Part shown: positions 1 through 5,191 of the stretch, one piece after another | Layout: the number at the start of each line of letters is the position of its first letter | Numbering within the stretch: position 1 is the first letter of the stretch | IMG/VR virus record: IMGVR_UViG_2565956611_000004 | Span: 1 to 5,191 of that record | Direction: 5' to 3' (one strand) | Source: a virus | Taxonomy: Duplodnaviria; Heunggongvirae; Uroviricota; Caudoviricetes | Length of the DNA stretch: 5,191 nucleotides | Translations under genes and position numbers: made by a program | The notes under the pieces: model-generated | Database searches by the model: none | Seen by the model: only the letters and a program-made list of their open reading frames with translations | Told to the model about the DNA's origin: nothing

Positions 1-46
1 AGGTTGCTCCGGGCTATGAAATAGAAAAATGAATCCGTTGAAGCCT
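1..46. other. Host chromosomal flank (attB B-arm side) adjoining the prophage attL
   Basis: The sequence left of the core (aatccgttgaagcctg) matches what I recall of the E. coli attB flank, not the lambda attP P arm. No ORF is assigned here. Confidence 0.55.
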
Positions 47-61
47 GCTTTTTTATACTAA
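47..61. other. attL: attL common core / overlap region (GCTTTTTTATACTAA) of a lambda-type site-specific recombination site
   Basis: Exact 15-bp lambda att core, with the P' arm sequence to its right and non-phage sequence to its left. Confidence 0.85.
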
Positions 62-85
62 GTTGGCATTATAAAAAAGCATTGC

Positions 86-98
86 TTATCAATTTGTT
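86..98. promoter_or_regulatory. IHF binding site (H' of the att P' arm)
   Basis: TATCAATTTGTTG fits the IHF consensus WATCAANNNNTTR and sits at the expected position between the core and the arm-type Int sites. Confidence 0.6.
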
Positions 99-106
99 GC
101 AACGAA

Positions 107-137
107 CAGGTCACTATCAGTCAAAATAAAATCATTA
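107..137. promoter_or_regulatory. Int arm-type binding sites P'1-P'3 of the P' arm
   Basis: Tandem arm-type-like repeats caggtcactat / cagtcaaaat / aaaatcatta directly abut the int stop codon (TAA at 135-137 on the minus strand). Confidence 0.6.
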
Positions 138-1205
138 TTTGATTTCAATTTTGTCCCACTCCCTGCCTCTGTCATCACGATACTGTGATGCCATGGTGTC
201 CGACTTATGCCCGAGAAGATGTTGAGCAAACTTATCGCTTATCTGCTTCTCATAGAGTCTTGCAGACAAACTGCGCAACTCGTGAAAGGTAGGCGGATCC
301 CCTTCGAAGGAAAGACCTGATGCTTTTCGTGCGCGCATAAAATACCTTGATACTGTGCCGGATGAAAGCGGTTCGCGACGAGTAGATGCAATTATGGTTT
401 CTCCGCCAAGAATCTCTTTGCATTTATCAAGTGTTTCCTTCATTGATATTCCGAGAGCATCAACATGCAATGCTGTTGGGATGGCAATTTTTACGCCTGT
501 TTTGCTTTGCTCGACATAAAGATATCCATCTACGATATCAGACCACTTCATTTCGCATAAATCACCAACTCGTTGCCCGGTAACAACAGCCAGTTCCATT
601 GCAAGTCTGAGCCAACATGGTGATGATTCTGCTGCTTGATAAATTTTCAGGTATTCGTCAGCCGTAAGTCTTGATCTCCTTACCTCTGATTTTGCTGCGC
701 GAGTGGCAGCGACAGGGTTTGTTGTTATATGGCCTTCAGCTATTGCCTCTCGGAATGCATCGCTCAGTGTTGATCTGATTAACTTGGCTGACGCCGCCTT
801 GCCCTCGTCTATGTATCCATTGAGCATTGCCGCAATTTCTTTTGTGGTGATGTCTTCAAGTGGAGCATCAGGCAGACCCCTCCTTATTGCTTTAATTTTG
901 CTCATGTAATTTATGAGTGTCTTCTGCTTGATTCCTCTGCTGGCCAGGATTTTTTCGTAGCGATCAAGCCATGAATGTAACGTAACGGAATTATCACTGT
1001 TGATTCTCGCTGTCAGAGGCTTGTGTTTGTGTCCTGAAAATAACTCAATGTTGGCCTGTATGGCTTCAGTGATTGCGATTCGCCTGTCTCTGCCTAATCC
1101 AAACTCTTTACCCGTCCTTGGGTCCCTGTAGCAGTAATATCCATTGTTTCTTATATAAAGGTTAGGGGGTAAATCCCGGCGCTCATGACTTCGCCTTCTT
1201 CCCAT
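135..1205 (-). CDS. int: Lambda-type integrase (tyrosine recombinase), 356 aa
   Basis: The translation matches lambda Int as I recall it, with the catalytic residues in place (R212, K235, H308, R311, H333, Y342). It ends next to the att P' arm. Confidence 0.97.
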   Translation of the reverse strand: MGRRRSHERRDLPPNLYIRNNGYYCYRDPRTGKEFGLGRDRRIAITEAIQANIELFSGHKHKPLTARINSDNSVTLHSWLDRYEKILASRGIKQKTLINYMSKIKAIRRGLPDAPLEDITTKEIAAMLNGYIDEGKAASAKLIRSTLSDAFREAIAEGHITTNPVAATRAAKSEVRRSRLTADEYLKIYQAAESSPCWLRLAMELAVVTGQRVGDLCEMKWSDIVDGYLYVEQSKTGVKIAIPTALHVDALGISMKETLDKCKEILGGETIIASTRREPLSSGTVSRYFMRARKASGLSFEGDPPTFHELRSLSARLYEKQISDKFAQHLLGHKSDTMASQYRDDRGREWDKIEIK

Positions 1206-1401
1206 TTCTGATCCTCTTCAAAAGGCTACCTGTTACTGGTCGATTTAAGTCAACCTTTACCGCTGATTCGTGGAACAGATACTCTCTTCCATCCTTAACC
1301 GGAGGAGGGAATATCCTGCACTCGCGTACCCATCGACGAACTGTTTCAAGGCTTCTTGGGCGTCGCTGGCGTGCGTTCCACTCCTGAAGTGTCAAGTACA
1401 T
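1183..1401 (-). CDS. xis: Lambda-type excisionase, 72 aa
   Basis: The translation MYLTLQEWNARQRRPRSLETVRRWVRECRIF... matches lambda Xis as recalled. The 3' end overlaps the int start by 23 nt, as in lambda. Confidence 0.95.
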   Translation of the reverse strand: MYLTLQEWNARQRRPRSLETVRRWVRECRIFPPPVKDGREYLFHESAVKVDLNRPVTGSLLKRIRNGKKAKS

Positions 1402-1413
1402 CGCAAAGTCTCC

Positions 1414-1427
1414 GCAATTACACGCAA
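1414..1427 (-). promoter_or_regulatory. cII-binding direct repeat TTGC-N6-TTGC of the pI promoter (-35 region), just upstream of the xis start
   Basis: The minus strand reads TTGCGTGTAATTGC 13 nt upstream of the xis ATG. In lambda the pI promoter is cII-activated and its transcript begins inside xis. Confidence 0.6.
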
Positions 1428-1450
1428 GAAAAAACCGCCATCAGGCGGCT
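1426..1450 (-). terminator. Putative intrinsic terminator-like hairpin on the leftward transcript, just upstream of the pI cII site
   Basis: The minus strand reads GCCGCC-TGAT-GGCGG followed by TTTTTTCTT (a GC stem plus T-tract). I recall the same element at this position in lambda. Confidence 0.5.
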
Positions 1451-1514
1451 TGGTGTTCTTTCAGTTCTTCAATTCGAATATTGGTTACATTGTTTTCATA
1501 TATGAATAAATAAA

Positions 1515-1694
1515 TTAGCTTTTTCCGTTGCCTTCGCGATCTTTATTAATTTTGACAAACTCGTTTTTACCACGCTCTCCAAATGCGTCTTTAGAGTCGT
1601 TGTATCCGCAATCGCAGCACACATAATCACCAGACCATCCACGCATTGTTTTTTCTTTTGCAATATTTCCAGAACCGCATTTTGGACAAGACAT
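1515..1694 (-). CDS. Small zinc-ribbon protein (about 59 aa; CPKC-x17-CCDC)
   Basis: The ORF track entry 1515..1727 begins at a TTG. An internal ATG at 1694 has a GGAGGT Shine-Dalgarno 6 nt upstream, giving MSCPKCGSGN... Two CxxC pairs are spaced as in a zinc ribbon. Confidence 0.6.
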   Translation of the reverse strand: MSCPKCGSGNIAKEKTMRGWSGDYVCCDCGYNDSKDAFGERGKNEFVKINKDREGNGKS

Positions 1695-1790
1695 ATCACT
1701 ACCTCCAAAGCATGAGTGAGATGACAACGTAACATTGATTGGAGATTAACAATAGATTGCTGATGTAAAAGATATGTATAAGCTTCGCTT

Positions 1791-2672
1791 TCAAAGTGGA
1801 GGCTCTGGTAGCGGCATCCAGTGTGACGGCTCACATACCCCCTCAACACCATTCATGTAAAAGAATTGAAATAACCCTTTACCTTTGTGAAACCCTACCA
1901 TCTGCTCTTTAGTGTCTGAGCAATAAACCAAAACATCTTCTTCGTTTGGCATTCGATCACTACAGCTTATCCAACCATCCGGAGTTACCGGAGAGTTGCC
2001 AGCTAGTCTACGCAAAACAGCCTTAACAGCCTCAATACGGTCATCATCGCAACTTTCCAGCGTATCTATGCGATCGAGCATGATGATGGCGTTATCAATA
2101 TCAGGATTGCCGGTCCACTCATTACCGCGATTGGATTCGGCAGCCTGGTTGCCAGATGCTGGCTGATTGTCGGCTTGGCTATAGCTAACAGCACGGCAGG
2201 CATCCTCTACGTTCTTCACTGCATCTGCGCAGTAGTTATAGCGATTGCATTCCACTAACTTCTGCTTGAGATTTTCAATTGCTTGCGCGACATCAGCCTG
2301 TATTGGCGGAACGGCTGTTTGCTCTCGAACGTCATTAGTCGCTATCGGTTCTGCTGCCAACTGACTGGCATATTTGTTAATGGTAACGATAAGCTCTTGC
2401 TCGGCCTCATCCAGACAATCACCGATACCTCGCCTGTCACCGTCAAAATCATCGAAATCGGCACGAATCCTGGCAACCTCCCGGATTGCGGACAACACTT
2501 CACCAGGAATAAGCGGAGAGTTGCCCGATAGTACATTCTGCTCCAGCGATGCCAGAGCAATTCGTGCCAGTTCTTCCGCTTCTTCTGCTGGCAGTACAAC
2601 GTTGCTACCAGGTCCGTATGTTTCGCGCCACTGCTTGATTGTCAGTAGTCGCTCTTTGGTTATAGTGGTCAT
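1791..2672 (-). CDS. Ea22-like early-region protein with a DUF551-like C-terminal domain, 293 aa
   Basis: The C-terminus (...WISCSDRMPNEEDVLVY...EPSHWMPLPEPPL) resembles the DUF551 signature found at the ends of Ea22-like prophage proteins. Its start overlaps the upstream stop (ATGA). Confidence 0.8.
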   Translation of the reverse strand: MTTITKERLLTIKQWRETYGPGSNVVLPAEEAEELARIALASLEQNVLSGNSPLIPGEVLSAIREVARIRADFDDFDGDRRGIGDCLDEAEQELIVTINKYASQLAAEPIATNDVREQTAVPPIQADVAQAIENLKQKLVECNRYNYCADAVKNVEDACRAVSYSQADNQPASGNQAAESNRGNEWTGNPDIDNAIIMLDRIDTLESCDDDRIEAVKAVLRRLAGNSPVTPDGWISCSDRMPNEEDVLVYCSDTKEQMVGFHKGKGLFQFFYMNGVEGVCEPSHWMPLPEPPL

Positions 2673-2878
2673 TTGTTAACCCTCAAAACTTTATGCCCGG
2701 GCGCAAAAGCACGCGTTTTGTCTTTGCTTATTCGCCAGCCATCCTTGCGCGCCTCTTTTGCACAGCCAGCCCATGACGTACCTATATACTCACCGAAGTC
2801 TGGCACTGGATATACACCTTCCGTGCACTGACGGCAGTCACAATAGAGATGCATTGTGTAACTTGCGGCAATAGCCAT
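2669..2878 (-). CDS. Small Cys/His-rich hypothetical protein, 69 aa (possible metal-binding)
   Basis: Strong Shine-Dalgarno (AAGGAGG, 5-nt spacer) before the ATG at 2878. It contains H10, C13, C15, C18 and C39, and is translationally coupled to both neighbours. Confidence 0.65.
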   Translation of the reverse strand: MAIAASYTMHLYCDCRQCTEGVYPVPDFGEYIGTSWAGCAKEARKDGWRISKDKTRAFAPGHKVLRVNK

Positions 2879-2879
2879 A

Positions 2880-3344
2880 TCACCCTCCTTTACCCTGAAG
2901 CATGGCGTCGCTCCGCTCTATACCATCCAGCGCGATTCGCAGTGCCTGAATTGTGGTAGTGCTATCGTTTGGGGCTATTCCATATCGCTCGAATACAGCT
3001 AAATGGTTGCGCATAATCTCAGGCGTAAGCTCTTTGTAAGCATAAGCAAGAGGCTCTGATGCATTATCCGGCACAACCGACGCAGGCGCGGCAGCATAAA
3101 CAGGAATAACGTCCGCTTGCTCTTTATTGCTTTCATCCGTTAAAGCCCAGAATAATTTCCCGGCCGGATGTTTGAAAATATAAGCAACTGGTTCTGCACT
3201 ATCAGCTTCGCGCCGCTTCTGTAGCTCTGCTGCCATTGCTCTCACGACTTCAACTGGTGCCCTTGCGGCAAACTCTATGTTGGTGATCAGCTCATTAAGA
3301 TATTGCTCGCTGGGATACTGTTTCTTATTGGTAATAGTGGTCAT
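2880..3344 (-). CDS. Hypothetical protein, 154 aa
   Basis: Shine-Dalgarno GAAGGA upstream; its ATG overlaps the upstream stop (ATGA at 3341-3344). No motif recognised. Confidence 0.7.
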   Translation of the reverse strand: MTTITNKKQYPSEQYLNELITNIEFAARAPVEVVRAMAAELQKRREADSAEPVAYIFKHPAGKLFWALTDESNKEQADVIPVYAAAPASVVPDNASEPLAYAYKELTPEIMRNHLAVFERYGIAPNDSTTTIQALRIALDGIERSDAMLQGKGG

Positions 3345-3856
3345 GCCGCGTTTCCTTCTTTCTTATTAACAATTACACCGTCATATATTTCATTAAGGTG
3401 CCCTCTCAACTCCATGCGCCTTAATGCAGATAACATGTAATCGCATTCAACCTGCTTATTTCCAGTAAATGGCTTATCGTCAGGATTACCCCAACAGCAA
3501 TTACCCTTGGGCCACCCATGTACTTTCCGTACTCTTCCGTTAACAACGTGAAGTAATCCCCAGCCAGGTGGTAAATCCTCAATTGAAATAATTCCCGGCT
3601 CACTAATAAAGAATCGCCAGTCGCCCATTCCAAGAGACGGATTTTTACGAAAACGCTTTTTTCTATCTGCCAACAAGTCAGCACGAGAACACTTCGCCTC
3701 TATCAGGCATGATGCTGAATTTCTGAATCCCATAGCATCTGGCTGTTCTCCGGTACTGGTTACAGCTATAAAGCGGTCATGAAAACAAACCTTGAACCCG
3801 TTGCGCTTAAGGAACTTGTACGCAATCTGACAGAGTTCGCGGTGTGTTAACGCCAT
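3341..3856 (-). CDS. Putative PD-(D/E)xK superfamily nuclease (Hjc/VRR-NUC-like arrangement), 171 aa
   Basis: Start refined to the ATG at 3856, which has an AAGGAG Shine-Dalgarno with a 6-nt spacer. The track's 195-aa form begins at an upstream GTG inside the preceding gene. Motif reading: E7 ... GEQPD40AMGF ... CLIE53AK55, i.e. E / PD / ExK with nuclease-like spacing. Confidence 0.6.
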   Translation of the reverse strand: MALTHRELCQIAYKFLKRNGFKVCFHDRFIAVTSTGEQPDAMGFRNSASCLIEAKCSRADLLADRKKRFRKNPSLGMGDWRFFISEPGIISIEDLPPGWGLLHVVNGRVRKVHGWPKGNCCWGNPDDKPFTGNKQVECDYMLSALRRMELRGHLNEIYDGVIVNKKEGNAA

Positions 3857-3857
3857 A

Positions 3858-4046
3858 TCACTCTCCTTTAGTGCGCAAGTGGTTTTTCCAGCGGTTTTGC
3901 GCCGCGCTGGGCTTTTTGCAAAAACCACAATCCATCATCCCGTAATATTTCATCAACCCCATCCGTCGGTTGCTGAGTCTCACCCACTGCCAGACGCCAG
4001 GAGCGTTTCTACGAACTAACAGAATCTTTGCTTTACGGTTTTTCAT
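3858..4046 (-). CDS. Small basic protein, 62 aa (paralog A; MKNRKAK... N-terminus)
   Basis: Its ATG overlaps the stop of the upstream paralog (ATGA), and its own stop lies 1 nt before the nuclease-like gene's ATG. Lys/Arg-rich. Confidence 0.6.
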   Translation of the reverse strand: MKNRKAKILLVRRNAPGVWQWVRLSNRRMGLMKYYGMMDCGFCKKPSAAQNRWKNHLRTKGE

Positions 4047-4047
4047 C
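4027..4047. repeat. Direct repeat copy 1 (tttgctttacggtttttcatc), covering the start of the 62-aa ORF
   Basis: 20 of 21 nt identical to 4200-4220. Confidence 0.8.
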
Positions 4048-4219
4048 TTACAGCGTACCCTTTCTTCCGCCTGTTCTGTGACGCAGTAGGCTTACGCTTT
4101 GCGGCAAAAGCCACCTGACCAAATGGATGGAGTACCGCTATCTTATGGTTGCTAATAACCAGCTCCACCACACGCACAGGTCGCTGTAAAAAAAGTCGTT
4201 TTGCCTTACGGTTTTTCAT
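4043..4219 (-). CDS. Small basic protein, 58 aa (paralog B; MKNRKAKRLFLQRPVRVVELVISNHKIAVLHPFGQVAFAAKRKPTASQNRRKKGYAVR)
   Basis: Not in the supplied ORF track; found by manual translation. AGGAGAG Shine-Dalgarno about 8 nt upstream. It shares the N-terminal MKNRKAK and the C-terminal K(K/R)KP(S/T)A(A/S)QNR motif with the 62-aa ORF. Confidence 0.5.
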   Translation of the reverse strand: MKNRKAKRLFLQRPVRVVELVISNHKIAVLHPFGQVAFAAKRKPTASQNRRKKGYAVR

Positions 4220-4220
4220 C
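4200..4220. repeat. Direct repeat copy 2 (tttgccttacggtttttcatc), covering the start of the 58-aa ORF
   Basis: 20 of 21 nt identical to 4027-4047. Confidence 0.8.
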
Positions 4221-4391
4221 GCTTTGCTCTCCTGCGTCTCTTTGCTGCTCGTCGTGCCGCTGCAATACCGGTATGGCGGCGCTTTGGTGCCGGGATGATG
4301 TTGTCAGCCATCAGGACATGTGGCTTTGCAATTAGCGCAGAAGCCCAAAAACGAGTCGGGTACGGTAACAAGCCGATACATGCCACACGCA

Positions 4392-4880
4392 CTACTCACC
4401 TCCGTTGATGCGAATGCCTGTTGCAATGCTGTTTATGATGCTGTCAGTGCATGGGGTAGAAAGCTGGGCATCTCCAGCAATTTTCATGACATCAACATCT
4501 GCATATCGAATACCGAGGTGTATCAGACCGGCTATACCTGACTTAAGCCGAGCATTTTCCATAAACAGATCCTTTGCCCGCTGTTTTTCTGCCTCAAGCT
4601 CAACGCGCAACTTCCCTACCGTTAGCGCAATATCCTCGTTCTCCTGGTCGCGGGATTTGATGTATTGCTGGTTCCTTTCCCGTTCATCCAGTAGTGCCAG
4701 CACGGTTTCTGGTCCGGCCAGAAATTTGAAGGCGTTGAGCGCATCAATATCCACACCGTAATCTTTAAGTTCCTGTTCACTTAACAAATCATCATCAGCT
4801 GGCAACATTAACAGGCGTTCCATTGCTGGAATTGCACGTTCCGCCGCCTCACGCAGTGCCTGGTAATTAATTTCGCTCAC
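4392..4880 (-). CDS. Ea22-like protein, 162 aa (lambda Ea22 homolog with a divergent central region)
   Basis: GTG start with a strong Shine-Dalgarno (AAGGAGG, 6-nt spacer). N-terminus MSEINYQALREAAE..., the block LLDERERNQQYIKSRDQENEDIALTVGKLRVELE, and the C-terminal ...GIRINGGE resemble lambda Ea22 as I recall it. Confidence 0.85.
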   Translation of the reverse strand: MSEINYQALREAAERAIPAMERLLMLPADDDLLSEQELKDYGVDIDALNAFKFLAGPETVLALLDERERNQQYIKSRDQENEDIALTVGKLRVELEAEKQRAKDLFMENARLKSGIAGLIHLGIRYADVDVMKIAGDAQLSTPCTDSIINSIATGIRINGGE

Positions 4881-5191
4881 TGGTTGCCTCCTTTGCGAAG
4901 CTGGGCAGCAAAGTCAACTAACCACTCAGTCATTTCAACCTTCCCTACCAGATCTGAACCAGGGTGCATACAGCAATCACTCTGCGCCGCTTTGAAATCC
5001 TTATACTCATATTCTTGGGCCACCAGATTTTTTGCAGCTTCTATAGCAGCATCCACGCCCTGCGCCCGCACTTCAGCCAGGAAAGCATCGGTGGCTGGGG
5101 TTTCAGTAACATCATCTTCCCATTCGCTAAACTCCTCACGACAAAAGTCATTAAATTCCTTCTCAGATTGCTTAAGCGAGGTATTTTCAGC
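4877..5191 (-). CDS. Hypothetical protein, 5'-truncated by the window edge (at least 105 codons in the window)
   Basis: The minus-strand frame is open from the window edge to the TGA at 4877-4879, which overlaps the GTG start of the Ea22-like gene (GTGA). The track's 64-aa ORF is this frame cut at an internal GTG. Confidence 0.6.
   Translation of the reverse strand, partial: AENTSLKQSEKEFNDFCREEFSEWEDDVTETPATDAFLAEVRAQGVDAAIEAAKNLVAQEYEYKDFKAAQSDCCMHPGSDLVGKVEMTEWLVDFAAQLRKGGNQ

Follow-up and report, generated by a model that had tools for sequence, protein, structure and literature searches.

What does a small minus-strand gene in the leftward early region of a lambda-type prophage encode, and what could its product do for the phage? 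The gene lies in a 5,191-nucleotide stretch of DNA from a tailed phage of the Caudoviricetes (IMG/VR record IMGVR_UViG_2565956611_000004, positions 1 to 5,191), hereafter referred to as the window. An earlier note, made from the letters alone, had recognized in its 171-aa product the catalytic signature of minimal PD-(D/E)xK nucleases. The superfamily, its mechanism and the nearest family are already known; the novelty lies in assigning a very common but unannotated phage gene family to the MmcB/Hjc branch of the PD-(D/E)xK nucleases, which gives a frequent "hypothetical" phage gene a concrete and testable function.

Gene model and prophage setting

The listed ORF spans 3341-3928 (195 aa) from an upstream GTG. 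The true start is likely the ATG at 3856-3854, giving 171 aa, because an AAGGAG Shine-Dalgarno sequence, read directly from the DNA, lies six bases ahead of it, because homologues share this start methionine in the alignment, and because the 195-aa reading would run into the conserved upstream 62-aa ORF; the GTG-start form was ruled out on these grounds. The stop codon of the 62-aa ORF falls between the AAGGAG and the ATG, one base ahead of the latter, so the two genes are probably translationally coupled. The downstream 154-aa ORF, whose start codon overlaps the stop of the gene, is in the same operon. A site search found no convincing promoter-like or terminator-like site adjoining the gene on its own strand.

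The window is the left end of a lambda-type prophage. An exact copy of the lambda attachment core (0.02 expected by chance) is found just past the end of a lambda-type integrase gene. Given this exact core and the integrase gene beside it, the window starts at a prophage-host junction or at the attP of a lambda-int-type phage. The first two genes, annotated in RefSeq on matching Escherichia coli DNA, are recognizable as those of lambda Int and Xis. Past them, a tightly packed run of minus-strand genes extends from a zinc-ribbon ORF through an Ead/Ea22-like gene (Table 1). The target region is part of a mosaic accessory stretch between xis and the recombination genes, the gene content of which varies among phages.

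Table 1. Features of the window, with positions counted from its first letter
Feature	Position	Strand	Remarks
Lambda attachment core GCTTTTTTATACTAA	47-61	+	exact match
Tyrosine integrase gene	135-1205	-	RefSeq annotation of matching E. coli DNA
Excisionase gene	1183-1401	-	RefSeq annotation of matching E. coli DNA
Terminator-like hairpin	1432-1451	-	8-bp stem, 5 G-C pairs, T-run
70-aa zinc-ribbon ORF	1515-1727	-	two CxxC pairs
DUF551 protein	1791-2672	-	
69-aa ORF		-	between DUF551 gene and 154-aa ORF
154-aa ORF, phrog_6847	2880-3344	-	downstream; its ATG overlaps target TGA (ATGA)
Target CDS, 171-aa MmcB-like PD-(D/E)xK nuclease-fold protein	3341-3856	-	same protein as P7 Upf89.0
Variable loop, residues 114-133 GWPKGNCCWGNPDDKPFTGN	3458-3517	-	between beta6 and C-terminal helix; gappy alignment columns
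Family motif, residues 56-81	3614-3691	-	x-S-R-x-D-F/L-x-x-D-x-x-K-x-F-R...G-M-G-x-x-R; helix alpha2 and lead-in to beta4
Catalytic signature	3692-3739	-	D40 codon 3739-3737, E53 3700-3698, K55 3694-3692
D27 codon	3776-3778	-	end of beta1; aligns with invariant E29 of MmcB
TGA stop of 62-aa ORF	3860-3858	-	between AAGGAG and target ATG
Shine-Dalgarno AAGGAG	3863-3868	-	six bases ahead of ATG 3856-3854
62-aa basic ORF, phrog_1380	3858-4046	-	upstream; stop one base ahead of target ATG
58-aa basic ORF, phrog_1380	4043-4219	-	tandem with and overlapping the 62-aa ORF
Ead/Ea22-like protein	4392-4880	-	

We looked for a conserved partner gene across 80 IMG/VR loci carrying the family. No neighbor from the window travels with it and no neighbor cluster is universal in these loci; the 62-aa upstream ORF is absent beside the homologues there, and the 154-aa downstream ORF is likewise not a conserved partner. 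Antisense ORFs that at first seemed to be "conserved" neighbors were discarded as mere overlaps of the target gene itself.

Several smaller features of this region were also observed. The 62-aa and 58-aa ORFs, both assigned to phrog_1380, look like paralogues. In PHROG 9263, a profile of 230 positions, positions 1-61 match the 62-aa ORF and 62-230 match the nuclease. Since this profile spans both, the two are annotated as a single protein in some phage records, through a frameshift, a mutation or a calling artefact. The zinc-ribbon ORF has weak, sub-threshold zinc-ribbon matches, among them Lar restriction-alleviation protein (E 1.4e-4, 22.5 bits; cut-off 28.6 bits) and the HVO_2753-like zinc finger, and the terminator-like hairpin lies on the coding strand between this ORF and xis.

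Nuclease fold and nearest relatives

Reading the translation bore out each residue number given in the earlier note (E7, G36-E-Q-P-D40 and C50-L-I-E53-A-K55) as well as the 13-residue spacing from D40 to E53, and the C-terminal stretch quoted there was also found. A loose D-x(8-20)-[DE]-x-K pattern arises in 52% of shuffles of the protein and therefore means little alone; the stricter PD...hh[DE]xK arises in 0.6%. We count the signature as real because it is conserved across divergent representatives. When the query is aligned with 147 relatives (148 representatives, mutually ≤50% identical), D40 is retained in 144/145 sequences, E53 in 146/147 and K55 in 146/147. E7 is no conserved catalytic residue: of 132 representatives, 65 have E at this position and 28 have D. 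H5 is kept in 128/132. Position 27 is acidic (D or E) in 138/139 and, from the alignments, is likely an additional metal ligand.

Conservation extends well beyond the signature. D60 (147/147), D64 (146/148), K67 (147/148), R70 (147/147), G78 (148/148) and R81 (147/148) all fall within the family motif that follows K55 (Table 1). E37, S57, R58, W99-G-L, E137 and R146-R147 are the other near-invariant positions in the 148-member alignment.

An AlphaFold2 model built with 29 close sequences was of moderate quality (pLDDT 79), and one built with a diverse alignment of 60 sequences reached a pLDDT of 94.1 and a pTM of 0.88. The predicted alpha-beta-beta-beta-alpha-beta core is present, with a helix at residues 5-18, strands at 23-26, 41-45 and 48-54, a helix at 58-64 and a strand at 80-85; strands 100-105 and 108-113 and a long helix (134-150) follow. 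D40 immediately precedes or begins beta2, and E53 and K55 lie where beta3 ends, as is classic for PD-(D/E)xK enzymes. From these strand positions and from the alignments with Hjc and MmcB, we infer that D27, E37, D40, E53 and K55 would cluster in three dimensions.

The suggestion that the C-terminal half forms a separate specificity or regulatory domain was not borne out. Residues 1-160 make a single compact domain in the model, and the GWGLL strand, the hairpin and the long helix superpose on 3dnx within that one domain; a two-domain architecture was therefore ruled out. Family-specific features are confined to two places: the loop around residues 114-133, and segment 66-79 (K66-D79, KRFRKNPSLGMGD), where a 7-residue insertion carries F-R...G-M-G. 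The loop had lower pLDDT in the first model and 91-92 in the second, and most of it lies past the region aligned by hhalign, which stops at residue 118.

Foldseek recovered the same superfamily, weakly. The structural neighbors include 3dnx, restriction enzymes, Can2, NucS, Hjc and VRR-NUC, together with low-scoring matches to unrelated alpha/beta folds, and the whole domain matches 3dnx in the fold comparison. This structure is SPO1766 of Ruegeria pomeroyi and, with Caulobacter crescentus MmcB, represents the MmcB-like family PF06319, formerly DUF1052. A profile of 60 relatives matched 3dnx over positions 12-118 (E 2.6e-5), and the part of 3dnx shown in that alignment matched Pfam PF06319, "DNA repair protein MmcB-like", at E 8e-34. 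Direct comparison by hhalign of the 60-relative alignment with 25 proteins of the MmcB family gave 98% probability (E 2.9e-13) over 96 columns. Taken together, these results make both the fold and the homology to MmcB-like proteins very probable.

In the alignment, D27 corresponds to MmcB E29, D40 to D39 and E53-x-K55 to E53-x-K55, and the S-R-x-D-F-x-x-D-x-K helix is common to both. Identity is only about 23-25%, however, and the stretch from K67 to G-M-G is 7 residues longer than in MmcB. The target family also differs in having the 114-133 loop, a conserved H5 and a P-x-G-W-G-L-L strand of its own. The A-A-R-R-L near the C-terminus of the MmcB consensus resembles A-L-R-R-M of the target by our own reading of the two sequences, outside any alignment. 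Members of the target family come mostly from phages and from a broad range of taxa, whereas PF06319 is described as mostly alphaproteobacterial and chromosomal; it was placed in the PD-(D/E)XK group with its function unassigned (PMC3424549). Profile analysis had linked DUF1052/PF06319 to archaeal Holliday-junction resolvases (PMC1189080). A review presents Caulobacter MmcB, through genetics and fold assignment only, as a PD-(D/E)XK endonuclease under SOS control with a protective effect against mitomycin C and cisplatin (PMC9578287).

With Hjc (PF01870; 1hh1, 1gef, 1ob8), the protein shares the minimal PD-(D/E)xK core. The 60-relative profile matched Sulfolobus Hjc at E 0.1, in an alignment that pairs D42, E55 and K57 of Hjc with D40, E53 and K55 of the target. 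We take E12, D42, E55 and K57 to be the Hjc active-site numbering; the presumed equivalent of E12 is E7, which is acidic in 93/132 representatives. Scanned singly at E up to 1, 37 of the 60 relatives gave sub-threshold matches to Pfam Hjc and 15 to MmcB-like (gathering cut-offs 21.1 bits for PF01870 and 22 bits for PF06319). The best match of a relative to Hjc had an E-value of 1.3e-4, and the two such matches with scores shown reached 16.9 and 17.7 bits.

For the target protein itself, Pfam gave no match with the E-value limit set to 0.1, and none in the one-by-one scan with the limit at 1; NCBIfam and PADLOC likewise gave none at a permissive 0.1. Among its neighbors, the sole PADLOC match was at chance level, on the zinc-ribbon ORF. 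A single-sequence search of PDB sequences returned only noise. In PHROGs, the protein matches families of unknown function and, weakly, PHROG 5429, "DNA repair protein". We do not file it as a member of PF06319 because, although clearly homologous, it falls below the Pfam membership threshold. On these sequence comparisons, the target family is best regarded as a separate and unnamed family, sister to PF06319 within the Hjc-related group.

The assignment in the earlier note to an Hjc/VRR-NUC/T7 endonuclease I-like type therefore stands in part. Motif, model, structural neighbors and the Hjc alignment agree on a minimal PD-(D/E)xK fold of the archaeal Holliday-junction-resolvase-like type. VRR-NUC (PF08774) and T7 endonuclease I share the superfamily and the general order of motifs, but neither is the family of the target: for VRR-NUC there was no match to the Pfam model and no close structural match, and T7 endonuclease I was likewise rejected. 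The view that the protein is not lambda exonuclease was upheld, as there is no match to Pfam PF09588 (YqaJ) and none among the fold-search matches listed.

Distribution of the family

A word-indexed search returned 324 relatives, none of them functionally named and almost none with a Pfam domain; a few fused forms were labelled ead/Ea22-like. An exhaustive profile search, with clusters counted at 50% identity, yielded 3,301 cluster representatives at an E-value limit of 1e-3 and 2,428 at the stricter limit of 1e-10. With about 3,300 clusters, the family is large; neither Pfam nor NCBIfam has a model for it, and its members are nearly everywhere annotated as "hypothetical". Upf89.0 of phage P7 is identical to the target protein, and homologues occur in P1/P7-type phage-plasmids. 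A literature search found no paper on Upf89.0 or on the target family.

Near-identical DNA is present in 137 phage records, mostly of Stx-converting phages, and most of the matching deposited Stx-converting phage records contain the gene. An 879-bp region comprising the gene and the two small ORFs upstream of it matches 1,194 of 5,426 complete E. coli genomes, about one in five, with 403 matching places on plasmids. At the protein level, a homologue was detected in 643 of 50,697 phage records, many Vibrio phages among them. Phages of 152-164 kb that infect Salmonella, Klebsiella, Dickeya, Erwinia and Escherichia also carry homologues, mostly at 42-48% identity and matching residues 4-113 only (records H63-H87, for example MT074475.1 77014-77346); one of these records names its homologue "DNA repair protein". 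We presume these large phages to be virulent, without a lysogeny decision. The truncated matches may reflect a shorter form without the C-terminal helix or a C-terminus too diverged to align.

Relatives are encoded on 481 IMG/VR contigs. On four contigs read by hand, the homologue lies among strings of small phage ORFs or, in one case, takes the form of a fusion protein; a RusA resolvase gene is present on one of the four. Among reference genomes, the family occurs in Gamma- and Alphaproteobacteria, Desulfuromonadaceae and Desulfobacteraceae, in the Bacteroidota genera Larkinella, Dyadobacter and Hymenobacter, and in Planctomycetes (Zavarzinella), Verrucomicrobiaceae and Saccharimonadales.

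Dozens of reference genomes of Terriglobia (Acidobacteriota) carry a chromosomal homologue. It holds a conserved position downstream of a CHAD/HD-domain (Ppx-GppA-like) protein and convergent with dnaX-ybaB-recR (loci L097-L165, for example L103:3001-3552, L148:4056-4655, L121:4204-4509, L120:5173-6435 and L143:1430-2950), and it scores 19.9 bits on Pfam MmcB-like, below the cut-off. This branch is apparently vertically kept. Its neighborhood offers a weak functional hint, since dnaX-ybaB-recR is convergent with the homologue rather than co-transcribed.

Among longer homologues, the only domain fusions found were single cases of a weak TniB-like ATPase match and of DUF551, and a few of Ead/Ea22. 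In a distant 428-aa homologue (P0134, L005:6001-7287), the nuclease domain occupies residues 265-422 and the N-terminal part has a weak TniB-like ATPase match (E 3e-6); its gene adjoins that of a large TPR protein, in a context that looks different and non-phage. Six other homologues (P0009, P0091, P0093, P0104, P0033 and P0005) have an Ead/Ea22 N-terminus or an extra C-terminal segment. For P0005 and P0033, the extra segment is similar to the beginning of the DUF551 ORF in the window, and the junction in P0009 drops the first ten residues, H5 included. The four longer forms that we read look, by their sequences, like calls from an upstream start, read-through into the next gene or mosaic junctions. 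The six fused or extended homologues likewise look like mosaic recombination junctions or read-through calls and not like functional architectures.

Proposed function and alternatives

We propose that the protein is a DNA endonuclease that depends on metal ions and is produced early in the lytic cycle, with branched or damaged DNA as our guess at the substrate, and give this reading a probability of roughly 0.6. Some proteins with the PD-(D/E)xK fold are not nucleases; here, the conserved site makes nuclease activity quite probable. One or two Mg2+ or Mn2+ ions would be held by D40 and E53, probably with assistance from D27 and/or E37, while K55 would position or activate the attacking water. 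The near-invariant basic residues R58, K67, R70, R81, R146 and R147 would bind the DNA backbone, and the protein would cut DNA phosphodiester bonds, possibly as a homodimer like Hjc.

Its substrates may be branched or damaged replication and recombination intermediates of the phage DNA. That it recognizes a DNA structure or lesion, and not a sequence, is a tentative suggestion, made because MmcB and Hjc act in this way, because no modification or immunity gene accompanies the family and because the cellular branch lies near replication and recombination genes.

With regard to expression, the lambda-type prophage carries the gene in its leftward early operon, where start and stop codons overlap, and the upf89.0 operon of P7 has an annotated C1 operator, Op(hea), upstream. 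From the early operon, the overlapping codons, the C1-controlled P7 operon and the lack of a promoter or terminator of its own, we suggest that the gene would be kept off during lysogeny and expressed soon after induction or infection, within the leftward early transcript. It looks accessory rather than essential.

Stx phages and similar prophages are induced by DNA damage, for example by mitomycin C. A more specific version of our proposal, which we consider unlikely at present, is that the protein is the phage's own MmcB-type lesion-repair nuclease, rescuing phage yield after damage-triggered induction. Induced prophage genomes would carry cross-links or adducts at the time when replication must start, and an early MmcB-like endonuclease could incise at lesions or stalled forks; the same activity might help virulent phages to replicate on damaged or modified templates. 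If this idea is true, the DNA damage that induces Shiga-toxin phages would be linked to a phage-encoded means of coping with it. If the protein is merely one more accessory nuclease, the assignment is a useful annotation and nothing further.

The conserved nuclease site could also belong to an offensive enzyme that breaks down the DNA of the host or of competing phages and plasmids, in superinfection exclusion, host takeover or nucleotide scavenging. Large virulent phages often attack host DNA, and the homologues in the 152-164 kb phages would fit such a role, as would the placement of the gene in the mosaic accessory region and the presence of restriction enzymes and CRISPR-associated nucleases among the structural neighbors. 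An unregulated DNA-degrading enzyme, however, usually needs an inhibitor, immunity or methyltransferase gene, and none is conserved alongside the family in the 80 viral loci. PADLOC gave no match, the closest relative is a repair protein and not a restriction enzyme, and the Terriglobia branch is chromosomal and apparently vertically kept. We consider an offensive role unlikely, if somewhat less so than the specific lesion-repair idea.

The alignment of D40, E53 and K55 with the Hjc residues, the weak Pfam Hjc matches in 37 of 60 relatives and the tie of the sister family DUF1052 to archaeal resolvases (PMC1189080) could instead point to a true Hjc-like resolvase, a dimeric enzyme that cleaves four-way junctions in phage recombination and packaging. 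At least one homologue, however, shares its contig with a RusA resolvase gene, and we regard this activity as improbable. Compared with these possibilities, the metal-dependent endonuclease that we propose remains our preferred reading.

Other genes of the exo-xis region affect the lysis-lysogeny decision, and the structural neighbors include an XisH family protein, the FdxN excision controlling factor and a TBP-interacting protein, which are not described as nucleases in their PDB entries; a non-cutting DNA-binding or regulatory factor in that decision is nevertheless very improbable, as the full catalytic set is present in at least 98% of the 148 divergent representatives, which is hard to explain without catalysis, and homologues occur in the large phages that we presume to be virulent and to make no such decision.
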